In this document: positions 6,616-64,000 of the stretch, piece after piece | Layout of the letters: each line of letters starts with the position of its first letter | How positions within the stretch are numbered: position 1 is the stretch's first letter | Assembly (NCBI GenBank): GCA_964587425.1 | Contig: CAZPLB010000004.1 | Coordinates: 3,197 to 67,196 of the forward strand | DNA from: an uncultured Gammaproteobacteria bacterium | GTDB taxonomy: Bacteria; Patescibacteriota; Microgenomatia; UBA8517 | Direction: 5' to 3' | Length of the DNA stretch: 64,000 nt | The notes under the pieces: generated by a model | The model's database searches: none | The model's input: the letters and a program-made list of their open reading frames with translations, nothing else | What the model was told of the DNA's origin: nothing | Program-made: the position numbers and the translations under genes

Positions 6616-7868
6616 TGCTAAATAGCACAATCAGGAAGAAGATATTGATTACAGCTCTCGTTCTTGTAGTCTTCAGGCTTATTTCCCATATTCCAGTTGC
6701 AGGAGTTGACCGCGGCGCCTTGCAGGCTTTGTTTTCGGGGAGTCCGATTCTTTCTATTCTCGACTTTTTTTCTGGAGGAACTCTTGCCAATTTTTCAATA
6801 CTAGCACTTGGACTTAACCCTTACATTAATGCTTCCATAGTTTTACAACTCTTGGGGTTTGTCATTCCAGCCTTGGAGGAATTGCAGGAGGAGGGGGAAT
6901 TGGGACAGGAAAAGATTAACCAGTACACAAGATTTTTGACTGTACCTCTAGCCGCATTTCAGGCCATCGGAATATATTTCTTGCTAAGAAGCCGTGGGCT
7001 TGTTGGCGACTTTACCCCCTTTCATTTGGTTGCATTTATCATAACCATGGTAACTGGAACAATGATTGCTCTTTGGCTTGGGGAACTTATAACTGAGTTT
7101 GGAGTGACAAATGGAATTTCATTCCTTATTTTTGCTGGAATAGTATCAAGGATTCCAGTTTCTTTGGGGAAAATTGGCGACACATTAGGATCACAGGATT
7201 TGACTAAAATTGGCGCATTTCTTGCAGTATCTCTTGCCATCATTGTACTTGTTGTTTTCATTAGCGAAGCGGTACGCAAGATTCCAATTAAATATGCAAG
7301 ACGCGGAGGAGGAGCAAGCCCTATTGCAACGTATCTTCCACTTCAACTTAATCAAGCTGGAGTAATCCCGATTATATTTGCGGTATCTCTTGTTCTTTTT
7401 CCATCTTTAGTTGCACAGTTTGCAGGGAGTGCGGCGGGTGGTGAAGTTGCCCGAATTGCCGGGCAAATTGTTGCTGTCATGAATCCTCAGACATTTGTAT
7501 ACAATGCGACATACTTTCTTTTAGTTGTTGGGTTCACGTATTTCTATACTACAGTTGTAGCTAACCCTGAAAAAATATCAGAGCGCTTACAGAAAAAGGG
7601 AGCTTTTATTCCAGGGAAGCGACCCGGTGTTGAAACCAAAAAATACCTTTCATATGTTTTGACTCGCGTTACTTTGGTTGGAGCAGTGTTTTTGGGAATG
7701 ATTGCGGTACTTCCCTCTATAATTCAAAACTTAATTGGTGTTCAGAATTTAGTTATTGGAGGAACCGGGGTTTTAATTGTGGTTTCAGTTGTTCTCGAAA
7801 TGACAAGAGGACTTCAAGCACAGGTATCTACAAAGCAGTATGGAAAATTTGTGGAGGCAACCAGATGA
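6615..7868 (+). CDS. secY: preprotein translocase subunit SecY
   Basis: The 417-aa polytopic membrane protein ([32 protein letters not shown]...) follows L15 in conserved order. Confidence 0.95.
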
Positions 7869-8503
7869 TTATTTTAATGTTGGGGCCACAGGGAAGCGGC
7901 AAGGGAACACAAGCAAGGCTTCTTTCTACAAAGTTTAACCTTTTTTATTTTGAGAATGGGGCATTCTTAAGGGATTTGGCAAAAACAAATGAGACTGTAA
8001 AAAAGACCATGGCTGAGGGGAAATTGGTTCCAAACGAGGAAATGTCGTCATATATCCAGGCATTTTTTGATGAGAAAGGAATATGGAATGACATTATATT
8101 TGATGGGTTTCCTAGGACTCTGGAACAATATCAATTTTTTAAAGGTTGGCTTAAAGAAAAGCAGGTAAGTTTGGATTTGGCAATTGTACTTACAATTAGT
8201 GAGGAGACTACAGTTAGTAGGCTTTCAGCAAGGAGGCAAGACCCTGAAACTGGAAAAATATACAACTTGATTACTGATTTACCGCCTGCGGATATTGATA
8301 AAGATAAATTGATTCAGAGGGAGGATGACAAACCTGAAGCAATTAGGAAAAGGTTAGATATATACAAAAGCATGACTCTTCCTTTGGTTAATGCGTTGAA
8401 GGATGAGACTATGGTTGTTGAAATTGATGGAGAGAAGTCTATCGATGAAATTCAGGATGAGATTGTAGTAGCAGTGGAGGGCATTAAAAATGGCAAGAGA
8501 TAG
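7865..8503 (+). CDS. adk: adenylate kinase, short lid without Zn cysteines
   Basis: The P-loop [11 protein letters not shown] and the context after secY identify adk. Confidence 0.9.
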
Positions 8504-51494: not shown

Positions 51495-52646
51495 TCAATC
51501 ATTCTTAGCATCAACTATGAAGCTTGCTCTATTAAATAATTCATCGAATGTTAAGATATCGATTCCATGTAATGATTTTCGAAATCTTTGAAAAGTTTCT
51601 CTTTTACTTCTGGTATCGAGTTGAGATAACTGGCCAATTACCACAACTCCTTTAGGCTGTATTGTAAATACATTATCTTTTTCTAATTTATCAATGTTCT
51701 CTGGAAATCTTGATCCTTGTTTATCCCAAGTATCAACATTAACTTGTATTTGAGTTAGGGCATCCGTTAGTTGTTTTGAAAGACTCCACGCCCCTGATCT
51801 AATCTCCTTTTCACCTTGGAGTAGTTGAGTATCTGGAGTTTTTATTTCGACTAAAACTGTAAAACTTAAATCTCCAACAGTGGATGTTAGATAATCTCCT
51901 TTTTGTCCTCCTCTTCCGTCAACTTTTGTGCCTCCATAATTTGGTTGATTTTGTTCTTGTCGCAAAATTTGATAATTTAGTCCGTAACCAAATATCCATT
52001 TATTTGACTCAAAAAAATCTTGCCACCATTTTTCATCTGTTGACTGTGTTTTAATTGATGTGTCAAACAATGTAAGCTTTTCTTTTCTCTTTAAGATTTG
52101 ATTTATGTCGTCTTCTGATAGTGAAATACCATTTATTAAAGATAGTTGTTTGATAATACTCAGCACACTCTCAATACCACGCCCTCTAATGGCTTTGACT
52201 ATCTCGCTCTCGGCTTGGGTTACCAAAGAAAAACTTTCTCTAGGAATTTCAATTTGTGTTAGGGAGGTTAAAAATGAGATAAGTTTCCAAAAGTTATCGT
52301 GGCATTCTTCTAGGTTGACACTCGCTTTAATCATGCGGTCCTTCGCCTCGGTCATGTTTACCGATTCTTCAATAATTTTCCCGGTCACGTTTCTAACTGA
52401 TACAGAGATTCGAGGCGTAAATTTTTCATCTTTTTTTATTAATACAACCTTACAAATGTAATCAACTTTGTCTTTCTTATTTAAAATAAACTGTTTAATC
52501 AATTTATTATCTTTTTTGCTGAAAAAATAATGGAAATTGTTTTCGGGAGTGGGATGGATTTCTAAATCGTCAAATGAGTCTTTGCCAACTATAAAGCTGT
52601 CATTGTTTACCTGAATCCATTTGTCATAATCAACAGTCTTTAACAT
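51495..52646 (-). CDS. Shedu-like (DUF4263) PD-(D/E)xK nuclease, putative anti-phage defence protein
   Basis: The C-terminal half has EKWWQDFFESNKWIFGYGLNY...GDYLTSTVGDLSFTVLVEIKTPDT...IDILTFDELF. This gives a D-x13-E.K catalytic arrangement and the DUF4263-like entry motif. It is adjacent to a recombinase and phage genes. Confidence 0.45.
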   Translation of the reverse strand: MLKTVDYDKWIQVNNDSFIVGKDSFDDLEIHPTPENNFHYFFSKKDNKLIKQFILNKKDKVDYICKVVLIKKDEKFTPRISVSVRNVTGKIIEESVNMTEAKDRMIKASVNLEECHDNFWKLISFLTSLTQIEIPRESFSLVTQAESEIVKAIRGRGIESVLSIIKQLSLINGISLSEDDINQILKRKEKLTLFDTSIKTQSTDEKWWQDFFESNKWIFGYGLNYQILRQEQNQPNYGGTKVDGRGGQKGDYLTSTVGDLSFTVLVEIKTPDTQLLQGEKEIRSGAWSLSKQLTDALTQIQVNVDTWDKQGSRFPENIDKLEKDNVFTIQPKGVVVIGQLSQLDTRSKRETFQRFRKSLHGIDILTFDELFNRASFIVDAKND

Positions 52647-52703: not shown

Positions 52704-53990
52704 TTAATGAGCTCTGAGAGAAGTAATATTTCGGTTCTTGATAAATAGTGGGAAATTAAAAATGTTAAATAGCTCACGTTTTTCCTCTGTGTTTTTGTTT
52801 GTTAAAACATATCTCGCATAATCTCTTATGTCCCACAGTTTCGAATTTGGATTAACATCTTGCTGAAGAAAGATTGCTTCTCTCATATTCTTAAACTCCT
52901 CGAGTCCTTTTTGAATTTTATCTGTCAGTACTAACTCATGAGAATGAGCTATATACATAAAGTTTATGAGTTTTAGTAAACTTCTTTCTAATTCTTCTTC
53001 CGACACATAAGGTTCTCTGCAATCGTAATCAATTTGGCGGGAACAGTGATAATAAACATGGTATCTCGGCTCTTTTCTTAATCTTTCTCTGTATCTGTCT
53101 TCTCCAACAATGCTTGCCTTGCAATTAGCACATTTCAGAAGTCCTTTATAAGTGAATGTTTTTGATCCCCATTTAGCTTTTGTTGGTACTATTAATTTTT
53201 CTTGAACTTTATCAAACATTTCTTTTGTGATTAACGGAGGATATGAACCCTTATACCAATTGCCACTTTTTATCGGATATTCAAATTCACCATAATAAAA
53301 TGGATTTTTTAGCATTAAATAAACCTGACTCAAGGTAATTAGTTGCCCAGATTTATTTGTAAGGCTCACTTCATCTAGCCATTTTTTAATCTTTCTTCCG
53401 CTAGATTTTTCCTTAATAAATTTTGTGAACATTTGCGTAATAATAGGTCCTCTTTCCGAATCAAGAATCACGTCTTTTATCCCATTAAAAGATCTATTCA
53501 TATATCCAATTGGAGTAGGACCAGGTCTAAATCCCATTTCGCATTTTGCTCTAATTCCTCGTTTTACATTTATACCTTTTTGGTCATTTTCTAGTTTTGC
53601 TTGGGAGCAGAGAATCATAAGTAAAAACTTCTCGTTGGGGTTATTGGAAAACATTTGTGAAAATGTCCTTATTTGCAAGAGTTTCCCCTGATCCATCAGA
53701 TCCACTAAATTCCCCAAATCTCCAGCGTTACGTGATAACCTGTCAGGTGCCCAAGTTAAGATCCCATTAAACCTTTTTTCTCTAATATCACTAAGGAGTT
53801 TCATAAACATTGGCCTCTGTCCTGAATCTTTTGCAGAATGGCTCTCCTGAAGTACCTCAACAACATTTAAGCCCTCTTTTGTTGCGAGAGCTCCCATTTC
53901 CTTTATCTGACTATCAATGCTCATGGTTTGGCGTTCATCGCTCTCTGAAGATTTCCTAGCATATAAACAGTAATTAATTTGAGGCTCCAT
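52704..53990 (-). CDS. large serine recombinase (resolvase catalytic domain + recombinase domain + zinc ribbon)
   Basis: The catalytic-serine region YCLYARKSSESDERQTMSIDSQ, a recombinase domain and a C4 ribbon (CANCKAS...YHCSRQ) are present. The start was set at the internal ATG (MEPQINYCLY...). The ORF track extends it to 54077. Confidence 0.8.
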   Translation of the reverse strand: MEPQINYCLYARKSSESDERQTMSIDSQIKEMGALATKEGLNVVEVLQESHSAKDSGQRPMFMKLLSDIREKRFNGILTWAPDRLSRNAGDLGNLVDLMDQGKLLQIRTFSQMFSNNPNEKFLLMILCSQAKLENDQKGINVKRGIRAKCEMGFRPGPTPIGYMNRSFNGIKDVILDSERGPIITQMFTKFIKEKSSGRKIKKWLDEVSLTNKSGQLITLSQVYLMLKNPFYYGEFEYPIKSGNWYKGSYPPLITKEMFDKVQEKLIVPTKAKWGSKTFTYKGLLKCANCKASIVGEDRYRERLRKEPRYHVYYHCSRQIDYDCREPYVSEEELERSLLKLINFMYIAHSHELVLTDKIQKGLEEFKNMREAIFLQQDVNPNSKLWDIRDYARYVLTNKNTEEKRELFNIFNFPLFIKNRNITSLRAH

Positions 53991-54033
53991 ACAGGTACAA
54001 GGTACCGCAACGGTTTGTGAAGTCCAGACGTAA

Positions 54034-54064
54034 AAACAGGAAGGTGTTTTATTCCTTCCTGTTT
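54034..54064 (-). terminator. hairpin terminator AAACAGGAAGG-n9-CCTTCCTGTTT downstream of the 54080..54508 gene
   Basis: An 11-bp perfect stem with a T-rich flank on the minus-strand transcript. It lies between the OB-fold gene and the recombinase. Confidence 0.55.
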
Positions 54065-54079
54065 CTAACTTTAGCAACT

Positions 54080-54508
54080 TTATTTAACAATCTCACAGTC
54101 GCTGACGTCAATTACTCCGATTGTTTGTTTACCTACAATTCCTTGTACAGTAACTGTTTGACCGTTCTTTATCGTCAATAGCTGTTGTTTGTCTTTAATC
54201 CTACAGCTTATCTGCACTAAGGAAAAATCCTTTGATCCAATATTGGCAAAGGAAATACCTGAGTCGGTAATATTTGTAACCTTTGCAGAAAACTCAACAA
54301 GTTTACCTTTCCATGTTGCCTCAGCCGCCACTTGATTGGCGTCAAAATCATCTGCTAGTTTATCCACGCTTATTTTTTCAGCTACAGGAGCCGGAGTAGG
54401 TGAGGATGATGAAGAAGTCTTGCTTCCTCCCTTACCGCTTCCACCAACTATTCCAATTACTATTAGCCCTAAAATGATAAACCCAACAATTTTTAAAAAT
54501 TTTTTCAA
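54080..54508 (-). CDS. membrane-anchored small protein with a Gly/Ser-rich linker and an OB-fold-like C-terminal domain
   Basis: An N-terminal TM helix, GGSGKGGSKTSSSSSPTPAP linker, then a ~90-aa beta-rich domain. This is a common phage/island accessory architecture. Confidence 0.4.
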   Translation of the reverse strand: MKKFLKIVGFIILGLIVIGIVGGSGKGGSKTSSSSSPTPAPVAEKISVDKLADDFDANQVAAEATWKGKLVEFSAKVTNITDSGISFANIGSKDFSLVQISCRIKDKQQLLTIKNGQTVTVQGIVGKQTIGVIDVSDCEIVK

Positions 54509-54608: not shown

Positions 54609-54629
54609 TTGATAACTCTTGGCTATCAA
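54609..54629 (+). promoter_or_regulatory. inverted repeat TTGATA-N9-TATCAA overlapping the XRE gene promoter (candidate operator)
   Basis: The palindrome lies immediately upstream of the ATG of the HTH gene. TAATAT -10-like hexamer 4 nt before the ATG. Confidence 0.45.
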
Positions 54630-54639
54630 TAATATCAGT

Positions 54640-54855
54640 ATGATAAGAAGCACTAAACAAACCAAAGAGAGGCTGGGAAGCAAAATTCAGAAACTTAGAA
54701 AATCTTTTGACTTATCGCAAGAAGCGTTGGCATCAAAATTGGGTATCAGTAGAACTCATATGGGTCATATTGAGCAAGGAAGAAAATCGCCTTCTCTTAA
54801 ACTTCTTACCAAAATTTCAAAAGAACTTAAAAAGGACATTTCGGATCTCTTCTAA
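54640..54855 (+). CDS. XRE-family (Cro/CI-type) HTH transcriptional regulator
   Basis: LRKSFDLSQEALASKLGISRTHMGHIEQGRKSPSLKLL is a classic HTH_3 sequence. The start was set at ATG 54640. The ORF track uses TTG 54619. Confidence 0.7.
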   Translation: MIRSTKQTKERLGSKIQKLRKSFDLSQEALASKLGISRTHMGHIEQGRKSPSLKLLTKISKELKKDISDLF

Positions 54856-56375
54856 AACTTTGTATCCATTGTTATTGGTCCATGGTTGAATTCACGATCA
54901 TTGTATAAACCACCCGTTACAGGTGATCCACCAAAGATAAACATTTCAAACTCCGGTCTGCTGTCTTCCTCGATAATTTTTAAGAGCAGTAATGAAAAAG
55001 CATCTGCCAAATCATCATGCCTTTCGATGCCAAATCCAGTTAGTTGATTAATAAGTGTTTCTGCACCGTGCCTTGGGAACCAAACCTTACCCTGTTTAAT
55101 TATGTGGGTAACAATTGCAAGTCTTGTTCTTTTGTCTTGGCCTTTTGGACTCACACCTTCGACAGGGATATATTTAGAAGAAAGATGATCAATAAATGAT
55201 TGTTGGTAACCGACATTTTCAACAAATAACTTTGTCTGTTCGCCATGAACCACAGTTTTTGATAACGAAATTGCTGTCTCAACAGTTGTTGGAAAATCCA
55301 TCCTTTTATTTATTGGGTTAGGTAAAATATACACCGCCAAATCTTCACCTCGACCAAACATATATGCAGTGACCATTGCAGTACAGTCTGCTGATTCTCT
55401 TAAGGAAATTGCCAAATCAATTCCAATTCCAGCAAATTCGAAATTATCCGAATCTGGAGACGGAAGGTCGTCGTAATATTGTATCCATTCAGATTTAACT
55501 AATCTATCTTCATCAGAAATAATTTTAAGTAAATATTCTCTATAAAAGGCTGACTCTTGGGAGAAATTCTTTTTCAATTTTTCAACATCTTCAATTGTTG
55601 GGTATTTGGCAGGCCATAAAATATCATTTTTATCGTCAATCAGAGGGTAAGCCAAAAACTTACCATTCAACTTTTGGTCTTCTATCAATTTTCTAAACCT
55701 CATAATTAAACTGTCTTCGTGAAGTAAATTGCCGACAACCAAAATTTTTGTATTTTTATCTCCGACTGGAATAATTTCGGCATTAAACCAAGTGAAAGTT
55801 TTATCTCTACCTTCCTTTGTCTTAACACTATTAATGTCTTCTATGTCATCGCAAATAATTAAATCCGGCCTATACTGCCCATGTCTAACTCCGCGTATGC
55901 TTTGTTCGGTTGAAACGGCTGCAATTCGGGTACCAAATTTTGGAATAACTATTGAATTCGACCCCCATTCATCATTTGGCGATTCGAATGGGCCAATATC
56001 AGCTTTGAGTAAATCATTATTTTCAAGCTCCTGTTTAATATTTTCCAAATGCAATTTGGCTTGAGCTTGAGTTTGACAAACAATAAGAATAAATTTTTTC
56101 TGCTGGATTCCTATTATTGACCAGATCACATATGAAAGTGTTACCAATGTTGATTTTGCTGATCCACGAAAAGCGACAAGGACTGCAAACGCTATATCCT
56201 CTTCAGTAAGTTCAAATATTTCATGATGAAAAGGAGCAAACTCGCAGGAAATATAATGCGAAAGATAAAGTGTAAAAAACCAATAATGATTTTTTCTAGC
56301 CAAAGCCCGTCTTATTTTTCTATCCTTTCTGATTTTTTCTAATTCTTCTGGGCCTAGTTGGGGATAATAAATCAT
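54852..56375 (-). CDS. phage terminase large subunit-like protein (ATPase + RNaseH-like nuclease)
   Basis: Walker A (FRGSAKST) and Walker B (LIICDD) are present, with a C-terminal nuclease-like region. It is adjacent to a small-terminase-like HTH gene. Confidence 0.65.
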   Translation of the reverse strand: MIYYPQLGPEELEKIRKDRKIRRALARKNHYWFFTLYLSHYISCEFAPFHHEIFELTEEDIAFAVLVAFRGSAKSTLVTLSYVIWSIIGIQQKKFILIVCQTQAQAKLHLENIKQELENNDLLKADIGPFESPNDEWGSNSIVIPKFGTRIAAVSTEQSIRGVRHGQYRPDLIICDDIEDINSVKTKEGRDKTFTWFNAEIIPVGDKNTKILVVGNLLHEDSLIMRFRKLIEDQKLNGKFLAYPLIDDKNDILWPAKYPTIEDVEKLKKNFSQESAFYREYLLKIISDEDRLVKSEWIQYYDDLPSPDSDNFEFAGIGIDLAISLRESADCTAMVTAYMFGRGEDLAVYILPNPINKRMDFPTTVETAISLSKTVVHGEQTKLFVENVGYQQSFIDHLSSKYIPVEGVSPKGQDKRTRLAIVTHIIKQGKVWFPRHGAETLINQLTGFGIERHDDLADAFSLLLLKIIEEDSRPEFEMFIFGGSPVTGGLYNDREFNHGPITMDTKF

Positions 56376-56803
56376 TTTTGTTCCTCCATTTCTTCTTTTT
56401 GCATTGCTGGTATCAGTGAAGCTAATTGCAGAGCTTTTGTCACCAATGCTTCTTGTTCCGGAGTTAAGGTTTCATTTTGATTTTTCAGATTGGCTGTAAC
56501 CTCAACTTTAGTAGCATATGCAGAATGATGATGTTTTAACCAAAAAATAATTGCAGTCATATTTTGATCTTTGATTGCAGAAAGGAGCTGGCTCTCTGCC
56601 ATGTCATTAACCAAAGCTGCACCTTCATTCAGGGCAATATCCGTTTCCTTAGAAAACTTTTCATCATTTATTCTCCACCTGTAATATGTAGCTCTTGCGA
56701 TTCCAATTTTTCTGCAAACAACCTCCACAACTGGTGTCTCTTTTAATTTATCCAACAATTCTTTCTTTAATGCAGTTTGCCTTTTAGTAATTAAGTTTTT
56801 CAT
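56372..56803 (-). CDS. phage terminase small subunit-like HTH protein
   Basis: ...VVCRKIGIARATYYRWRINDEKF is a terminase-small/transposase-type HTH. The start was set at the ATG (MKNLITK...) overlapping the stop of the upstream methyltransferase gene. Confidence 0.5.
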   Translation of the reverse strand: MKNLITKRQTALKKELLDKLKETPVVEVVCRKIGIARATYYRWRINDEKFSKETDIALNEGAALVNDMAESQLLSAIKDQNMTAIIFWLKHHHSAYATKVEVTANLKNQNETLTPEQEALVTKALQLASLIPAMQKEEMEEQK

Positions 56804-58125
56804 TGTATTTTTATAGCTTTTTGCCCCGTCAAGTTCTCCCATCTCTTCTTGATAACTTCCGCGTAAACTGGTGACTTTTCCATTAAGTAGCATCGCCTTT
56901 TCATTTTCGTTGCAGCAATTAAAGTGGATCCACTTCCTCCGAAAGGTTCAATTATTAAATCATTTCTCTTAGTCAAAACTTTTATATAGGGGATAAGTAT
57001 TTCTATTGGTTTGGTTCCAAAAATTATTCCCTGACCTGAAGACTTTTCATCAGAAGCCTTATATTCAATAAAATCAGTCGGGCAATACTTATTACCTTTC
57101 TTATAACTTTCCCAAGTCGGTTTACCAGAAGTTGCAAAAAGTGCGGTTTCATATTCTTCTTGGAGAAGTGGTTCGTTCTCGTGATTAACATTTAGAGTTA
57201 CTTCACCTGATGTCCCAACCATTGCAAAATCATATTTATTAAAAAACTTATATTTTGCCGCAAAGCCCTGCATCCTGTTTGGTAAGTGCCAAATAACTGT
57301 GTTTCTGTATTTCCAATGCTTCTCCAGTTCGTTCCAAATAGTTCTTAGATTTTTGGGATTTTCATAAACGATAATTGAAAAATCTGGTTTTTGAATCTTG
57401 GAAACACTGGCCATCCATTTTTCTGTGAAATCTGGTGGTAAAACATCTGTTTCTAAATATCTGCGGTCTCTCTTTGCTCCAAAACCTGTGATAGCTCCTT
57501 TATGTTTCTTCTTTCCTCGAAGGTAATCTAAAATGTAAGGCGGGTCTGTAAAACACATGTCCGCTTTTTCTCCACTCATGAGTTTTAACACATCTTCTTC
57601 AATCGTTGAATCTCCACACATTAATCGACTATTTCCTAATAGATAGATGTCTCCTTTTTGAGTTTCAACGTTTGTGATGTTCATCCTCTGAAGTTCCTTT
57701 TGAAGATCAAAAGTTTCTGGGTTTACATCAATATCAAAAATATTATCTATCTCTTCAGAAGAAAAGCCTGCGCTTGAAAGGAAAATCTCATCCAAATCTG
57801 CCAATAAATCCATATCCCAATCTCCTACGTTTTTGTTCGATCGAATATTGTATTCCGCAAATTCATCTTTTGTAAGTTTCCTGTTTGGAATTCTTATGTC
57901 TATTTCTTCTTCGCCTCTGCCTAAGAGAATCATTACCTTCACCCTCTGATGCCCGGCCACAATCTTATTGTCAGTATCGATAGCTGGGATTTCGGCTAAA
58001 TTAAATTTAATCAAGCTGTCCTTTAACTTGTTAGCCTGGTCCTCTGACAATTTGCGTGGATTTAATTCATACGGAATCAAATCTTTTACCTTACGTTTTT
58101 CTGTATGCCAAGATAAATTAGTCAT
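56800..58125 (-). CDS. ParB-like nuclease domain fused to a beta-class N6-adenine/N4-cytosine DNA methyltransferase (orphan, phage-type)
   Basis: The N-terminus has a ParB/Srx fold (YELNPRKLSEDQANKLKDSLIKFNLAEIPAIDTDNKIVAGHQRV). Motif IV (DPPY, in CFTDPPYILDY) precedes motif I (FGGSGSTLIAA), the beta-class order. Confidence 0.75.
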   Translation of the reverse strand: MTNLSWHTEKRKVKDLIPYELNPRKLSEDQANKLKDSLIKFNLAEIPAIDTDNKIVAGHQRVKVMILLGRGEEEIDIRIPNRKLTKDEFAEYNIRSNKNVGDWDMDLLADLDEIFLSSAGFSSEEIDNIFDIDVNPETFDLQKELQRMNITNVETQKGDIYLLGNSRLMCGDSTIEEDVLKLMSGEKADMCFTDPPYILDYLRGKKKHKGAITGFGAKRDRRYLETDVLPPDFTEKWMASVSKIQKPDFSIIVYENPKNLRTIWNELEKHWKYRNTVIWHLPNRMQGFAAKYKFFNKYDFAMVGTSGEVTLNVNHENEPLLQEEYETALFATSGKPTWESYKKGNKYCPTDFIEYKASDEKSSGQGIIFGTKPIEILIPYIKVLTKRNDLIIEPFGGSGSTLIAATKMKRRCYLMEKSPVYAEVIKKRWENLTGQKAIKIQ

Positions 58126-58175: not shown

Positions 58176-58925
58176 TCAATTGATGCCAATTTTTTGTTTA
58201 TGACGTTTTATGAAGCTAGCAACGTCAACGTATGTATAATTTTTGTCATATTTTTCAGATAAGATGTCAGATATTTCATCATTCGATTTGTTTGAAACAC
58301 TGAGCTCATATGCTTCTTTATCTCTATCAAAGTTTTTTATTGGTTGAAATTTCTTTTTGGTATAAGACGCAAGTCTTTTTTGGTGAAACTTGATTCTTGA
58401 CCATGCCTTCTTTATATCTTCAAGTCTAGTAGAATCATCTATCCCAATAGAAAGTTGTACTAGATCTGTGTCTAAGTCAAAATCCTCTCGAACTGTTACG
58501 TTTCCCACTATCCACATCGAGTCAAGATTGTTAAATAAAATATACCTTTGAATACTATGATGCCAACCTAAAGGCAACCTATGTTTTTCCAAGATTTTCT
58601 TTATACAGATATCCAATGCATTTATGGGAGCATCCTTGTTAAACTGACGTCGAAGATTGAAAGCTTCTTTAAACTTCTTTCCTTTTTCCAGCTCCAATTC
58701 TTCGATCTTTATCCTTGATATATTTTTTTCAAAATATTCGTCGTTGCTTAAATAAAAATTATGATGCCATTTTTCGCTTTGATCGTTATCTTTAATCCCT
58801 TCTTGAGGAATACTAAATCTTTCCCTGATTTCTGCCACATTTTTTTGAAAATCAGGGTTGGCAAGAGTCAGCCTTGCTCTTTGTTTTATCCTATTTGTTG
58901 GTTTCTTAACTTGTTTAGTTTTCAT
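58176..58925 (-). CDS. hypothetical protein
   Basis: A 249-aa Lys-rich ORF with no recognised motif. It is divergent from the downstream operon. Confidence 0.4.
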   Translation of the reverse strand: MKTKQVKKPTNRIKQRARLTLANPDFQKNVAEIRERFSIPQEGIKDNDQSEKWHHNFYLSNDEYFEKNISRIKIEELELEKGKKFKEAFNLRRQFNKDAPINALDICIKKILEKHRLPLGWHHSIQRYILFNNLDSMWIVGNVTVREDFDLDTDLVQLSIGIDDSTRLEDIKKAWSRIKFHQKRLASYTKKKFQPIKNFDRDKEAYELSVSNKSNDEISDILSEKYDKNYTYVDVASFIKRHKQKIGIN

Positions 58926-58990: not shown

Positions 58991-60199
58991 ATGAAATACA
59001 GAGTCTATGCCTTAATTCATGGTCAAACCCTTATGGAAGGGAAATTATTTGAGTGTGAAATTAAGAAGATGGAATTTGATGAACAAGCAAAAAGAAAGTT
59101 TGCCCCAATTCAAAGCGTTTTCTCCGAAGGAGAAGATTATGATTATTACAAAACTTATGTCACCTCTCTTCGATATATTGACCCTATAAAAATAAGGTCT
59201 GAACATGTAATTATTTGTGATATCGAGGAAGACAAACCTGGAGATGCACTAGGTGGAGCAATCAAAACAATCGAAAGAATAACCAGATTTTTGTCTTTAA
59301 CTTCTTTGGAAGATGTAAAGAGAAAATATGGAAGGAATAGAGGTAGTTTTGAACCATACGTTTATCAGGTAAATAAAATTTATTCTCTAAATAAAAATGG
59401 TAAAGAATCAGATGTTGGCTATAAGCTTGAAAGTGGACATATATATTTGCCAAATAGACCAGAACAGGAAAAATGGAGGGATCCCGGCACAAGTCAATTT
59501 TTAGATGAAATTTACAATTTCCACGACGAAACATTTGAGAGATCTCTCAAATATCTCTATCGATCTTCTATAGGACGTTTTGTTTTAGATAGTCAGGAGA
59601 AGATAGCATTGGATCATTTCAAATCAATTGAAATTATAATCAACTCATTATCAAAAGAACATGAGTTTAAGGATAGGTTGGCGGATGTCGCAGTAAAGAT
59701 AGGAATTACACCAAGAGAGCAAAAGAGAATTGAAGATTTTTGGGATGATAGGTCGAAGTATGGTGACATTGCTCATCCATCAAAATTTGACCAGGTTGAA
59801 AGATATCCAAACCAGTTTCCAGTACCCAGCAATACTAGATATTCCGGGAGTGGTTTTGATTCAATTGCTCCAAATATTCTCTTTAAATATTATCAGTACA
59901 TTAAAGGAGTTTTTATAATCGACATTGACGAACCATCTGGTGCGAATGGGTCAAACTCTAAAGAGGGTCGATTTGATAAAGTTTATGAAATCTCACAATA
60001 TGGCCCAAGTCACCACAACCATTTAGTTTTCTACACTTCAGAGAAAAACAAGCACAAATTAGTTAATAATTTAAAGAAGGCATTTTCCAAAAAATACAAA
60101 ATATCAGAGACTTCAATAACGGAAATAAAAATTCTCCCAAAGAAGAGTGGAAACTATAGCGAAAGGAGGGTTAGATTAAGAGTATGTACGACAATATAA
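58991..60199 (+). CDS. hypothetical protein (gene A of an uncharacterised operon)
   Basis: A 402-aa ORF of non-biased composition with no Walker motifs. It contains an RSKYGDIAH segment (R-x7-H, outside canonical HEPN spacing). Its stop overlaps the gene B start by 16 bp. Confidence 0.45.
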   Translation: MKYRVYALIHGQTLMEGKLFECEIKKMEFDEQAKRKFAPIQSVFSEGEDYDYYKTYVTSLRYIDPIKIRSEHVIICDIEEDKPGDALGGAIKTIERITRFLSLTSLEDVKRKYGRNRGSFEPYVYQVNKIYSLNKNGKESDVGYKLESGHIYLPNRPEQEKWRDPGTSQFLDEIYNFHDETFERSLKYLYRSSIGRFVLDSQEKIALDHFKSIEIIINSLSKEHEFKDRLADVAVKIGITPREQKRIEDFWDDRSKYGDIAHPSKFDQVERYPNQFPVPSNTRYSGSGFDSIAPNILFKYYQYIKGVFIIDIDEPSGANGSNSKEGRFDKVYEISQYGPSHHNHLVFYTSEKNKHKLVNNLKKAFSKKYKISETSITEIKILPKKSGNYSERRVRLRVCTTI

Positions 60200-61737
60200 A
60201 AATTGCTTTTGAAAGTTTAATTAAACATCCTCACTTCCAAATTCTAGTAAGAGAATATCGCCACAGGTTCGGTATTCCGGAATCTGGTTTTAGTGATTCA
60301 TCTTCTGAGGCATATAAAAATTGGGTAAATGAAGGTTTAAGAAAGTCAGATTATTTAAAAGATCAATTTCTATTTATAGCCAAAAGGTGTAAAAACCTTA
60401 TTCCAAACAGAGATCCAATCCCTAGCACCTTACTTGCATATTATTTTCTATTCGGACAAATTCCAAACGAATCATCTAGCCAAAATAGTTTTATCTTTTC
60501 TGTTAATCCAAGCGGAATTCTTGGCAGTTTCGATATAACTTTTACGACTCCATTAGTTTTCAGTTTGGATGAATTTTTGCAGGAGGTTGAAAAACATAAT
60601 CTGGAAATTAAACAAACAAGTGAAAACACAAGATTAGCTCTTTTTAATCTATCTAGTTCAAAAAAACCAAGGACATCGGAGTTTGACTCAACTCGCGACT
60701 TATTAGCAACAACCCCTGGCAATGGTTCAGATATTGTAGATCGAGTTCATAGAGATATGGCCTATTTAGTTGAGTTTGGTCGAATTGCATTAGAAGAACA
60801 TCTCCAAAATATGAAAGATGAAGATTTTGTTATTAATAGTTACGATGACAAAAATAAGCCCATGTTTCAACCAATACAACATATGGGATCCATTCTTTTG
60901 AATCGCGGACTATTTCCTATCGCTGAGGAATACTGGAAACAAATAGATGATGAGATTCAGATGTTTAATCGGCAAACTGGAAAAAGAGTTAATAGAGGCA
61001 TTCCATTAGCAAATACGGGTGTATCCCAAATTGCACAAGGGAAAGTTATAGAAGGTCTATTTAATATTTATAGAGGATATAACGACGATAAAGAATGTCT
61101 TCAGCATTTACCCGGAATTGTAATTGATCCTGAAAGGGACATGTCGAGAAGCGTTCTCTTTACTCAATTTGAAGAGAAACAAACTGCTGAACTTTTTAAT
61201 TTGATTGTTTCCAAATACAGCAATGTTTTTAATCCAGCACTGTCAAAAGAAGACCTTGCAGACTTTATTAAAAGTTTGGGTTCAGATAAAAAATTGCTTT
61301 TCTACATGATCCTTTATCGTTTATCTTTTGCTCTGAATTTAAACAATCAATTATCAACCGTCATTTCTAGAAGCGAGATTCTTAGGTCATTGGCGGAACT
61401 AGCTTTATGGTTTGAAGATGAGTTAAAAAGAAAAGATCCGGTTTTGATTGGTCGAACTTTGGTTCCGATATTGGATCAAAAAGTTGGTCAGTTAAATCCA
61501 ACCAGTGATCAATACACGAGGGCAGCAGACTTGGATGAGCTATCTAATAAAATATCCAGCGCACTACAAGCAACTGCTAATTTGGAAATTACAAACGCAC
61601 GAATTATTGGATGTTTAAGAAATTTTGCTGGCCACAATCTCGAAGTCCAAGACCACACATTTTTCCAAACTTGCGATGAAATTTTTGCACGGATGCTTTC
61701 TTTTATAATTTATTCAAGAGGTCAAAATTGGATTTAA
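60184..61737 (+). CDS. HEPN-motif protein (gene B), putative RNase
   Basis: The C-terminus of this 517-aa protein has ITNARIIGCLRNFAGHNLEV, i.e. RNFAGH, a canonical HEPN Rx4-6H (Abi2-like RNxxxH) motif. It overlaps genes A and C. Confidence 0.45.
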   Translation: MYDNIKIAFESLIKHPHFQILVREYRHRFGIPESGFSDSSSEAYKNWVNEGLRKSDYLKDQFLFIAKRCKNLIPNRDPIPSTLLAYYFLFGQIPNESSSQNSFIFSVNPSGILGSFDITFTTPLVFSLDEFLQEVEKHNLEIKQTSENTRLALFNLSSSKKPRTSEFDSTRDLLATTPGNGSDIVDRVHRDMAYLVEFGRIALEEHLQNMKDEDFVINSYDDKNKPMFQPIQHMGSILLNRGLFPIAEEYWKQIDDEIQMFNRQTGKRVNRGIPLANTGVSQIAQGKVIEGLFNIYRGYNDDKECLQHLPGIVIDPERDMSRSVLFTQFEEKQTAELFNLIVSKYSNVFNPALSKEDLADFIKSLGSDKKLLFYMILYRLSFALNLNNQLSTVISRSEILRSLAELALWFEDELKRKDPVLIGRTLVPILDQKVGQLNPTSDQYTRAADLDELSNKISSALQATANLEITNARIIGCLRNFAGHNLEVQDHTFFQTCDEIFARMLSFIIYSRGQNWI

Positions 61738-62393
61738 AACTTATGGACAAACTATTTTGTAATATTTGCAAAGAAGAAAAAGGTGTCACTAAATCCGGTA
61801 AAGAAGGGGTTGCTGATTTCTATATTCTTTCTTGTGGTCATCGGTTTCTAGCAGGATCCCTTTTTGAAAAAATTAAAATGAATGAACTGTTTAATTTTAG
61901 AGGAAAGGGCAAGACAAATATTAAATACACTAAGGGTGATCCTCAGCACAGTGCAAACTATGCTAAGAAATTCATTGAGTACGGAGATATTGATTATGAA
62001 GCTGCGACTGTTCTATTTAATATCCAAAACAGGGACTACGATTTCATGAACCAAGCAGCTTTTTTGTCGGCACAATCAATTGAAAAATATCTTAAAGCAT
62101 TTCTTTTTTGGAATTCAAAAACGCATTATCCAGGTTCAGGTGGTAAAGAAGTTTTAGAAAAATTCAAAGCGCTGAGCCATAACTTAGAAAATATTCTTGG
62201 CGAATGTGCAAAAGACAACAAAGATTTCTTAAAGTTTAAGAGTCAAATTAAGGAAGTTAACAAATATTCTCTACTTAAATATCCCGACGTTGAGGATGAA
62301 ATGGTTTATTCTGATTTGGGATTAACGATTAGTAGCGATATTTTGAAACATGTAAAATTGGTGGGAGACTTTATAAAAAAGTTATTACTGTAA
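61728..62393 (+). CDS. zinc-ribbon protein (gene C)
   Basis: The N-terminus has CNICKEE...x17...SCGHRF. A helical C-terminal domain follows with ...AAFLSAQSIEKYLKAF...KALSHNLENIL. Confidence 0.4.
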   Translation: MDLKLMDKLFCNICKEEKGVTKSGKEGVADFYILSCGHRFLAGSLFEKIKMNELFNFRGKGKTNIKYTKGDPQHSANYAKKFIEYGDIDYEAATVLFNIQNRDYDFMNQAAFLSAQSIEKYLKAFLFWNSKTHYPGSGGKEVLEKFKALSHNLENILGECAKDNKDFLKFKSQIKEVNKYSLLKYPDVEDEMVYSDLGLTISSDILKHVKLVGDFIKKLLL

Positions 62394-62395
62394 AA

Positions 62396-62980
62396 ATGTT
62401 GTCTGATAAATTAATCAAAGAATATAAAGATATTTTTGAAGTAAAATACAAACGAAAAATATCTGACGAGGAAGCGCGAGAAGGCGCGCAAAATTTAACT
62501 AATTTATTTGAGATCTTCTACCAGCAATTCCAAACAGAACAGCGAAGAAAAGCAAAATTAAAAGATAACCCAGATGGTTTTCTTTTAGATGACCACGAAG
62601 GCGCTTATAACTGCCGGGTTTGCAACTATCCTGTTTCTGGAAAAGAAGCTTGGTGGGATTTAAACGGTGTTAAGTGCCTAGATTGTCAGAGAAATATCAA
62701 AGAGGGAGTTATTCCCGGAGAGATTTGTCAAAACGATGACCTTTGTATAAAAGAATGGCAATTACAATCTGATTACAGTCTTCACCCCTCTACAAGAAGA
62801 AAACTTATAAGAGAAGGTGTCCTTAAAGCACGAGATTTAAAGAGAGAGGATGGGTCAACCTACTATTCTGTTTATCTTGTGAGTGAAAACAAAGAGTTTT
62901 TCAAGAAATATCCTCAAAAACCAAAAATGAAGTTTGAATGGAAAACTGTTGATAGTAAAGGTAATGAAGTAAGGCCATAA
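62396..62980 (+). CDS. zinc-ribbon protein (gene D)
   Basis: A central CRVCNYP...x16...CLDCQRN motif sits in a 194-aa ORF. Confidence 0.4.
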   Translation: MLSDKLIKEYKDIFEVKYKRKISDEEAREGAQNLTNLFEIFYQQFQTEQRRKAKLKDNPDGFLLDDHEGAYNCRVCNYPVSGKEAWWDLNGVKCLDCQRNIKEGVIPGEICQNDDLCIKEWQLQSDYSLHPSTRRKLIREGVLKARDLKREDGSTYYSVYLVSENKEFFKKYPQKPKMKFEWKTVDSKGNEVRP

Positions 62981-63099
62981 GTATATCAAACTACATCATT
63001 ACTCCAATATCCTTTTTATACTGTCTCAAATGTCTCATTTAGCCTCGATTGTGATACACTCTTAGGTGAGTTATAAGGTCTAAACGGGTTCAGACCGGT

Positions 63100-63783
63100 A
63101 TGCTCAGCATGGATAATCTTCAACAGAAACAATGGACTATTCCGAAAGCTAAGAAAAATCTTCATGCTTGTAGATATCATTTGGTAAATATGTGGCGTTC
63201 TGTACACCCAGAAGAACTTCAGTACAATTTCGCAGCATTTTTGAGTGAAGCGTTGAGGGTAACTTGGGTATTACAAAATGAATATTGTAGAGATAAGAAA
63301 TTTATAAAGTGGTGGGGTAATATTGAAAAAGATAGTCGTACTGGAGGTAATAAGTCTAAACTTGAAAAAGGAACAAAAAGATACGAGATGAGGAATGACC
63401 AGCTGTGTAGTTTTTTTTACGATCTGAGAACTAAAATTTTGAAAGAAGGAGTATCGGGATTTGCAGTTCAATCAACAAAGATTCTGAAATTAGATACAAG
63501 GTTTGACATTAAGGATAAGCCAGAAGGTGCAAGTAGTTTTATATTTTCTGGAAATGGTGCTTACTGGTTGATTTACCCTAGTTCTTCTAAAGTAGATATG
63601 ATTCCAGCAAAATTCCAAACTACTGCCAATATTCAATATTCAATTACAAGTACTGATCTTCCAAATTCGCACCTTAATAAGTTAATTAAAAACAATAATT
63701 TACTGAAGAGTTGTGAACTTTATTGTCAGTATTTGAGTAGTTTACTTGAAGAGTGGACAGAGATATTAAATAAACATGATTGA
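63100..63783 (+). CDS. hypothetical protein (gene E)
   Basis: A 227-aa ORF. Its stop overlaps the next ATG (ATGATTGA). Confidence 0.4.
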   Translation: MLSMDNLQQKQWTIPKAKKNLHACRYHLVNMWRSVHPEELQYNFAAFLSEALRVTWVLQNEYCRDKKFIKWWGNIEKDSRTGGNKSKLEKGTKRYEMRNDQLCSFFYDLRTKILKEGVSGFAVQSTKILKLDTRFDIKDKPEGASSFIFSGNGAYWLIYPSSSKVDMIPAKFQTTANIQYSITSTDLPNSHLNKLIKNNNLLKSCELYCQYLSSLLEEWTEILNKHD

Positions 63784-64000
63784 AACACACCCCTTCGGTA
63801 ATTATGTTCCTAAGAGTGTCAAGTACTTAATGTTAGGAAGTTTTGTAACTAAGCCCTCCAATCCTTATGAATGGTTTTATGCAAATGGTCGAAATCAGTT
63901 TTGGCCGATTATGCAAGAAGTTTATGGTTTAGAGCTCAAAACTAAAGGGCAACAACAAAAACTTTTTATAGATTTGGAAATGGCGCTTACAGATATAATT
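63776..64000 (+). CDS. uracil-DNA glycosylase superfamily protein (MUG/hypoxanthine-DNA glycosylase-like), 5' fragment truncated by the window end
   Basis: A manual translation gives MIETHPFGNYVPKSVKYLMLGSFVTKPSNPYEWFYANGRNQFWPIMQEVYGL.... The (L)GSFV...NP...NRFW arrangement matches UDG-family motifs A/B as in MUG (GINPG...HPANRFW). Confidence 0.4.
   Translation, partial: MIETHPFGNYVPKSVKYLMLGSFVTKPSNPYEWFYANGRNQFWPIMQEVYGLELKTKGQQQKLFIDLEMALTDII

Follow-up and report, generated by a model that had tools for sequence, protein, structure and literature searches.

In the layout described for HEPN domains, helix 3 ends in an Rx4-6H motif whose arginine is followed by a polar residue, and helix 2 carries Ex3[KR]; the AF0298 and AbiV families are known to have variant active sites (PMC3710099). 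Prophage-encoded HEPN defences have precedents in HepS of the Gifsy-1 prophage, a single Enterobacteria protein of ~218 aa that is a tRNA anticodon nuclease with a tail-tip trigger (PMC13043305), and in the tail-activated Tha of S. aureus prophages (PMC11087260). Tha, AbiD/F, AbiJ, AbiU2 and AbiV are HEPN effectors borne on mobile elements, with variable N-termini and beside restriction-modification (RM) genes (PMC3710099). ApeA (PDB 9hxm) is a single-protein HEPN defence, the HEPN-MNT modules (HepT/MntA) consist of two overlapping genes and Cas13 brings two HEPN domains together into one composite RNase site within a single RNA-guided polypeptide. Here we describe a gene cluster from Patescibacteria (the candidate phyla radiation, CPR), a group that holds a large share of bacterial diversity in tiny genomes and is thinly covered by defence catalogues. 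The cluster occupies positions 58991-64000 of a 64,000-nt stretch of contig CAZPLB010000004.1, which we call the window, and comprises six genes, A to F. The original prediction, made from the letters of this stretch, took the six for one obligatory multi-protein system and a candidate novel defence. On comparison with related loci we found that this is reasonable for A and B only. We estimate at about one half the probability that A-B is a two-gene HEPN RNase module of abortive-infection or toxin type restricted to Patescibacteria, a reading drawn from conservation, sequence motifs, structure models and genomic context. Tight packing with start and stop overlaps alone does not define a system, and comparison cut the six genes to two.

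Conservation of the A-B gene pair

Genes A (58991-60199, plus strand, 402 aa) and B (60184-61737, plus strand, 517 aa), the first and second gene of the module, overlap by 16 bp, and a Shine-Dalgarno sequence AAGGAGG for B lies 14 nt upstream of its ATG, inside A. We collected 87 loci (L001 to L087) through look-ups of exact proteins, scans of one genome and one metagenome and scans of viral sequence, and compared them by tblastn and clustering of open reading frames (ORFs). This set includes L001, a 12-kb metagenome contig (Logan SRR9179563) that is identical to the window where the two overlap and extends 1 kb further, together with a few duplicate contigs and two loci for relatives of D and E; about 85 are related A/B loci. 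In all 15 loci where A and B are both present and adjacent, the overlap is exactly 16 bp. Among the 34 A loci with at least 1.6 kb of downstream sequence, B is present in 15, and its presence follows the identity of A to the A of the window (14 of 19 loci at 56% or above, 1 of 15 below). The pairwise identities of A and of B in the 15 pairs are correlated (Mantel r 0.57, reached by 8 of 2000 permutations), and one pair, that of L002, is clearly recombinant. The flanking genes vary by locus, and therefore the conserved unit is exactly A-B, a module of unannotated proteins with HEPN features. E and F have homologues in none of these loci, C is found in 4 and D in 12; the gene set is thus not conserved as a block. 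A six-protein system is not supported, because E and F lack homologues and C and D stand in shuffled positions, D also without A or B.

Both genes also occur apart. A is solo in many loci, and B is found solo or with other overlapping upstream partners, namely a MerR/HTH_17 gene in L004 and an AlbA_2 gene in L016 (L006 and L011 are further loci of this kind). In L012 an intact B lies downstream of a decayed A remnant (7497-8248; tblastn 29% identity to A 325-402, no intact ORF), which suggests that A was lost there by insertion or decay; a gene for a 161-aa HNH-type endonuclease stands beside the remnant. HEPN-like genes are seen directly downstream of B elsewhere, one in L013 (10076-11068, 330 aa, with RNDIVH and a weak HEPN_Apea match, E 0.014) and one in L006 (11564-12130, 188 aa, with RNHIRH), and HEPN-type genes seem to cluster around B. 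A 364-365-aa protein (cluster c15, no annotation) is encoded 2-4 nt upstream of A in three A-B loci, L008 (7688-8782), L028 and L037, as a further recurrent partner, and is absent from the window; the cluster has a fourth member of 364 aa, possibly the gene upstream of C in L023.

HEPN features of A and B

Searches of Pfam, PADLOC v2, PHROGs v4 and NCBIfam returned nothing for A, B, D, E or the neighbouring gene Z, and gave matches of C to PF05168 and of F to TIGR04274. The statement that A-E hold no ATPase, helicase, TIR, SIR2, PLD or reverse transcriptase domain is borne out by the same searches. At the level of PADLOC v2 systems, zero families were matched at E<=1 by A, B, C, D, E, Z or the F fragment. 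Pfam scans of all 31 A members, all 27 B members and 42 members of the wider B family (B-core, see below) gave no consistent family. Sequence-profile searches against PDB with A, B and D returned nothing or generic zinc-finger patterns only. A and B have no relatives among 2.9 million IMG/VR contigs, and therefore a phage structural or replication role for the pair is less likely.

In the structure model, A has a beta-rich N-terminal domain, a central HEPN-fold domain (~167-305) and an alpha/beta C-terminal domain. The four-helix up-down HEPN fold is clear in this model, so that A qualifies as a HEPN protein by its predicted fold, and its best structural neighbours are HepT toxins (5yep_B, 8xdj and 7ae2). 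The putative active site is the motif RSxYGDxAH (R254-S255...D259-x-A261-H262; 59750-59776, plus strand), the columns of which are invariant in an alignment of 31 sequences. R254 stands at the end of helix 241-257 with the polar S255 next to it, and H262 lies in the following loop, which is modelled at low confidence. The Arg-His spacing is Rx7H and is hence non-canonical under the Rx4-6H rule. The family of A comprises at least 178 homologue sequence clusters, all from metagenomes and metagenome-assembled genomes (MAGs) of Patescibacteria/CPR.

B starts with a Z-related domain (~1-165), continues with a helical middle region and ends in a putative HEPN domain (~367-517). The HEPN motif RNFAGH, already noticed in the original prediction, is canonical (R479-N480-F-A-G-H484; 61618-61635, plus strand), with a polar residue after the arginine, and its RNxxxH pattern is kept without exception by 27 orthologues and by 41 distant relatives of ~340 aa. 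In the AlphaFold2 model the motif sits where helix 467-479 ends and the loop to helix 497-513 starts, and E411x3K415, invariant among the orthologues, lies in the long helix that precedes the motif helix. Taken together, the motif, the polar residue, Ex3[KR] and their helix positions agree with the HEPN layout, with RNxxxH at its expected position, and the sequence-based case for a HEPN domain is the stronger one for B. In structure comparison the sole specific neighbour of B was 5yep_B, a HepT toxin, and a Foldseek search of the B model against PDB found no match below E 0.1; the clear HEPN fold is that of the A model. Of the three HEPN-type genes that we recognise in the cluster (A, B and C), the original prediction had seen B and missed the other two. 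The family of B counts at least 65 homologue sequence clusters at 52-80% identity, nearly all of ~517 aa and from Patescibacteria/CPR metagenomes and MAGs. An encapsulin reading, hence a phage structural role, was considered for B on a weak Linocin/encapsulin match (E 0.26) and rejected because the match spans only 23 residues and the B model is all-alpha.

A whole-library search with hidden Markov models (HMMs) added 96 representatives of B-core relatives, mostly of ~340 aa and matching B from ~190 to 517. When B was aligned with 41 of these (19-33% identity), invariance was confined to columns G272, D302, R479, N480 and H484. One B-core member, P0242, carries an N-terminal HTH_17 fusion (set P0193-P0267, no annotation), and another relative has a weak match to PADLOC mad1.

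Gene Z (58176-58925, minus strand, 249 aa) is divergent from A and is a stand-alone paralogue of the N-terminal domain of B. The relationship was seen as a BLASTP motif match (E 1e-4) and as a match of the HMM of that domain to Z (E 2.7e-6); conversely, the Z-family HMM matches all B proteins, and Z can be aligned from end to end with P0269, itself a match to positions 12-162 of the B profile. The common motif reads P-FQ..V.E.R.RF.IP..G, and the C-terminal tail of Z looks like a helix-turn-helix (HTH). Solo proteins of ~220 aa similar to Z exist (P0269 and P0276), but the other A/B loci yielded no gene resembling Z.

Genes C to G

Gene C ends at 62393 on the plus strand and has two candidate starts, a TTG at 61728 (221 aa) and an ATG at 61743 (216 aa). 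Of the gene overlaps that had been taken as the sign of one system, that of A and B stands as described, whereas the 10-bp overlap of B and C requires the TTG. The ATG, 5 nt past the stop of B, is backed by the gene call in L001 and by three C homologues; the start remains ambiguous because AAGAGG is found 6 nt ahead of the TTG. C has an N-terminal CxxC...CxH zinc finger, conserved in the alignment, followed by a HEPN domain (PF05168, 28.0 bits against a gathering cut-off of 22, residues 80-198), which places it among HEPN proteins. Its motif is [KR]x3H in place of Rx4H, and its catalytic competence is therefore uncertain. Profile-profile comparison by hhalign related none of the A-HEPN, B-HEPN and C regions to another in sequence, and therefore they are three independent HEPN-type genes in a row and no recent paralogues. 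The C homologues (60-64% identity) in L022, L023 and L029 immediately precede A instead of following B; together with the window's own copy they make up the 4 loci. Within this element family, C is probably an optional, accessory HEPN gene.

Gene D (62396-62980, plus strand, 194 aa) has a Cys4 zinc ribbon with C73, C76, C94 and C97 invariant, and the zinc ribbons predicted in C and D were thus both found. In its 12 loci the D domain lies upstream or downstream, and it either makes up a short protein or forms the C-terminal part of proteins of 496-580 aa. A long form (541 aa, multiple zinc ribbons) is encoded in L086 (4846-6471), which is the viral contig IMGVR_UViG_3300025018_003594 and has no A or B; this contig also shares genes with L017, L027 and L008. 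To judge from its sequence, the conserved C-terminal region of D resembles an excisionase/MerR-like winged HTH, for which HMM searches gave no support as an HTH_17 protein. In this element family D would probably act as a regulator that binds DNA and carries a zinc ribbon.

About 120 nt separate D from gene E (63100/63109-63783, plus strand, 224-227 aa), the stop of which overlaps F by 8 nt, as ATGATTGA, with the ATG of F at 63776 inside it; this overlap, too, is as the original prediction gave it. Only 2 relatives of E (43-44% identity) were found among 5.8 billion clustered proteins, and an exact-sequence look-up of E was also empty. Both relatives have a precomputed match to PF26900 (Phage_lambda_Ea47), which our local Pfam copy did not reproduce, and one of them sits alone beside dnaK-dnaJ. 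Gene F (63776-64000, plus strand) is cut by the window end and has its full length of 163 aa in L001. It does belong to the uracil-DNA glycosylase (UDG) superfamily, as had been read from the fragment, and matches TIGR04274 (DNA-deoxyinosine glycosylase, UDG family 6) at E 7e-19; its 68.5 bits fall below the 80-bit equivalog cut-off, and we therefore treat it as a relative and not as a certified equivalog. By sequence, F would be a UDG-superfamily glycosylase resembling family 6 (hypoxanthine-DNA glycosylase). It has no homologue in IMG/VR either, and conservation lends no support to the proposal that it is the effector of the system. Downstream of F in L001 follow an 85-aa GIY-YIG gene (G), with a single distant homologue in L008, and an OmpR-type response regulator, which is taken to be host backbone. 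We take E, F and G for unrelated single genes, cargo or host repair, outside the conserved module. All six genes from A to F are on the plus strand and closely spaced, as first described; no terminator was predicted within the cluster, and a promoter scan gave fewer promoter-like sites than shuffled sequence.

The island and its defence neighbourhood

The island context named in the original prediction was confirmed gene by gene. Upstream of A and Z, the window holds a Shedu gene (SduA; 51495-52646, minus strand), recognised as such by PADLOC SduA at 445 bits and Pfam SduA_C at 1e-30, a serine integrase (52704-54077, minus strand; PHROGs 7.7e-58) and a 142-aa OB-fold protein of tRNA_anti-like type (54080-54508, minus strand) that matches a PHROGs family annotated as Sie-like, for superinfection exclusion (E 3.7e-14). 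The last has an N-terminal hydrophobic segment and would bring the defence-type genes of the island, with Shedu, to two. These are followed by an HTH regulator (54619-54855, plus strand), the large terminase subunit TerL (54852-56375, minus strand; PHROGs phrog_38, 1.5e-78), the small subunit TerS (56372-56893, minus strand; PHROGs) and a ParB-N6/N4 methyltransferase (56800-58125, minus strand; PHROGs 1.5e-72). The span bounded by the housekeeping znu/fur genes (left) and the response regulator (right), over the window and L001, holds no capsid, portal or tail gene, and att-like direct repeats at the island ends were limited to chance 11-mers. For tRNAs in the window, Rfam at its gathering threshold gives one and nothing else, and ARAGORN gives two.

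The trio of methyltransferase, TerS and TerL lies near A/B in eight other loci (L008, L011, L013, L021, L027, L029, L037 and L067) and accompanies A from 44% to 100% A identity. It recurs without portal, capsid or tail genes nearby, and several of these loci also have a large serine integrase. The trio islands could be a capsid-less, satellite-like family of integrative elements of Patescibacteria, and our literature search found no description of such ParB-methyltransferase/TerS/TerL elements. In an A-only clade, A abuts the serine recombinase, being convergent with it with a 4-bp overlap in six loci and lying directly after it in two. The slot between the ParB-methyltransferase and A holds Vsr and Dcm with a CBASS pair (CD-NTase and Cap15) in L083 (3222-9877) and an MmeI-type RM system in L084 (2790-9330), along with large unannotated proteins of 673 and 705 aa in the two slots; in these relatives it is a variable cargo hotspot. 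Type I RM-like clusters stand next to A in other loci. Three A-only loci have other neighbours beside A: SNF2-PLD, an MmeI-type methylase, SIR2 and Mrr in L018; PemK, a transposase and a ResIII helicase in L019; and an Mrr nuclease, a CAP12-type TIR protein, PIN and ParE in L087. Surroundings of this sort are typical for defence or addiction genes that mobile elements carry.

Interpretation of the A-B module

Gene structure, conservation, co-inheritance, the HEPN fold of A or motif of B and the genomic context are what we observe for A-B, and from them we infer RNase activity, activation by infection, a defence phenotype and an interaction of the two proteins. A and B would be co-expressed from one transcript and translationally coupled through the fixed 16-bp overlap and the Shine-Dalgarno sequence of B inside A. 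The beta-rich N-terminal and alpha/beta C-terminal domains of A could be sensor or regulatory parts, and so could the Z-like N-terminal domain and the helical middle region of B. The pair would be kept inactive in normal cells. Phage infection or loss of the mobile element would then activate the HEPN sites (RNxxxH in B, R254/H262 in A), which may cleave cellular or phage RNA (tRNA, mRNA) with no metal cofactor, and the result would be a growth stop, as in abortive infection. If A-B is an active HEPN RNase module, it would add a CPR-specific immune or addiction system and would also mark a recurrent integrase/terminase island with a variable slot of CBASS, RM and Shedu.

Four points weigh against this interpretation. 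A and B each occur alone, and their pairing is therefore not obligatory. The spacing of 7 in A falls outside Rx4-6H, and H262 is placed in a loop of low model confidence. The association with defence islands is a matter of anecdote (about 6 of 9 annotated loci) and not of statistical enrichment. Finally, the linkage of A to the integrase/terminase element across 42-100% identity would also fit a function in the core of that element.

The alternative that survives best, though we hold it unlikely, is that A-B serves to keep the integrative element stable, as a toxin-antitoxin or addiction module without phage sensing in which the upstream partner would neutralise the HEPN toxin by complex formation. 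The tight overlap with the putative neutraliser upstream fits it, as do the exchange of that partner for MerR/HTH_17 or AlbA_2 in front of B, the persistent link of A-B to the serine-integrase element and the fact that HEPN toxins are the commonest predicted toxins of such modules (PMC7641770). But no MNT-type antitoxin is present, and A keeps an invariant Arg and His of its own and stands by itself in about half of the loci, which is odd for a dedicated antitoxin; B, in turn, is alone in L006, L011 and L012, where a lone toxin would be expected to be lethal. Somewhat less probable is that A, possibly with B and D, belongs to the core life cycle of a terminase-bearing integrative element of Patescibacteria, where it might act in RNA processing, regulation or exploitation of a helper phage and would not protect the host. 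The contact of A with the serine recombinase in at least 8 loci, the co-occurrence of the trio with A over the range given above and the long form of D in a viral contig fit such a gene. Against this, A and B are also found where integrase and terminase genes are lacking over 8-10 kb (L002, L006, L018 and L087), both are absent from the IMG/VR contigs, and catalytic-type HEPN residues are conserved in both. We think it quite improbable that A-B is a heteromeric dual-HEPN RNase, with a Cas13-like composite site contributed by two proteins, and the signature defence of undescribed capsid-less, terminase-bearing, serine-integrase satellite-like elements that shuttle RM, CBASS and Shedu among Patescibacteria. 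That all six genes form one obligatory defence system with the UDG-like glycosylase as its DNA-targeting effector is highly improbable: UDG-fold glycosylases can act as anti-phage effectors and the genes are co-oriented with short gaps, no predicted terminator between them and overlapping E and F, but E and F have no homologue in the related loci, the relative of E is a singleton in a housekeeping context, C and D shift position or go missing and F scores as a relative of a hypoxanthine-DNA repair glycosylase; the six-gene model is effectively refuted by conservation.

Comparison with known HEPN systems

By function, the nearest counterparts of the A-B module are HepS and Tha, both single-protein HEPN defences of prophages, along with ApeA and the lactococcal Abi HEPN proteins; by structure they are the HepT toxins. 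At sequence level A-B belongs to none of these families. In contrast to HepS, A-B is a two-gene module with other extra domains and has no sequence similarity to it. With ApeA the likeness is in the motif: the one relevant match in the search of PDB with the B-core profile set RNFxGHN of B on the catalytic RNTIVHN of ApeA, at a non-significant E of 0.63. The domain architecture and length of B differ from those of ApeA, the PADLOC ApeA models do not match B, and 1 of 42 B-core members, a distant relative, has a weak and likewise non-significant match to PADLOC Cas13-ApeA (E 0.0057). The HEPN-MNT modules, like A-B, consist of two overlapping genes, and HepT proteins come nearest to A in structure and supply the sole specific neighbour of B. 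However, A and B are 3-4 times larger than HepT, both of them carry HEPN features, and A-B does not belong to HEPN-MNT, as no nucleotidyltransferase domain was found in A-E or Z and no MNT partner in the locus. As in Cas13, two different HEPN units are encoded together, but those of A-B lie in separate proteins with no CRISPR array or guide, and their heterodimerisation is a conjecture. Tha and the Abi proteins resemble A-B in being HEPN effectors on mobile elements, with variable N-termini and RM genes alongside; the Abi models of Pfam and PADLOC match neither A nor B, and the host range of A-B is CPR only, unlike that of Tha and the lactococcal Abi HEPN proteins. Relative to all of these, what is novel here are two putative HEPN families that occur in CPR only and are paired in a fixed way, the non-canonical predicted site of A and a capsid-free carrier with integrase and terminase.

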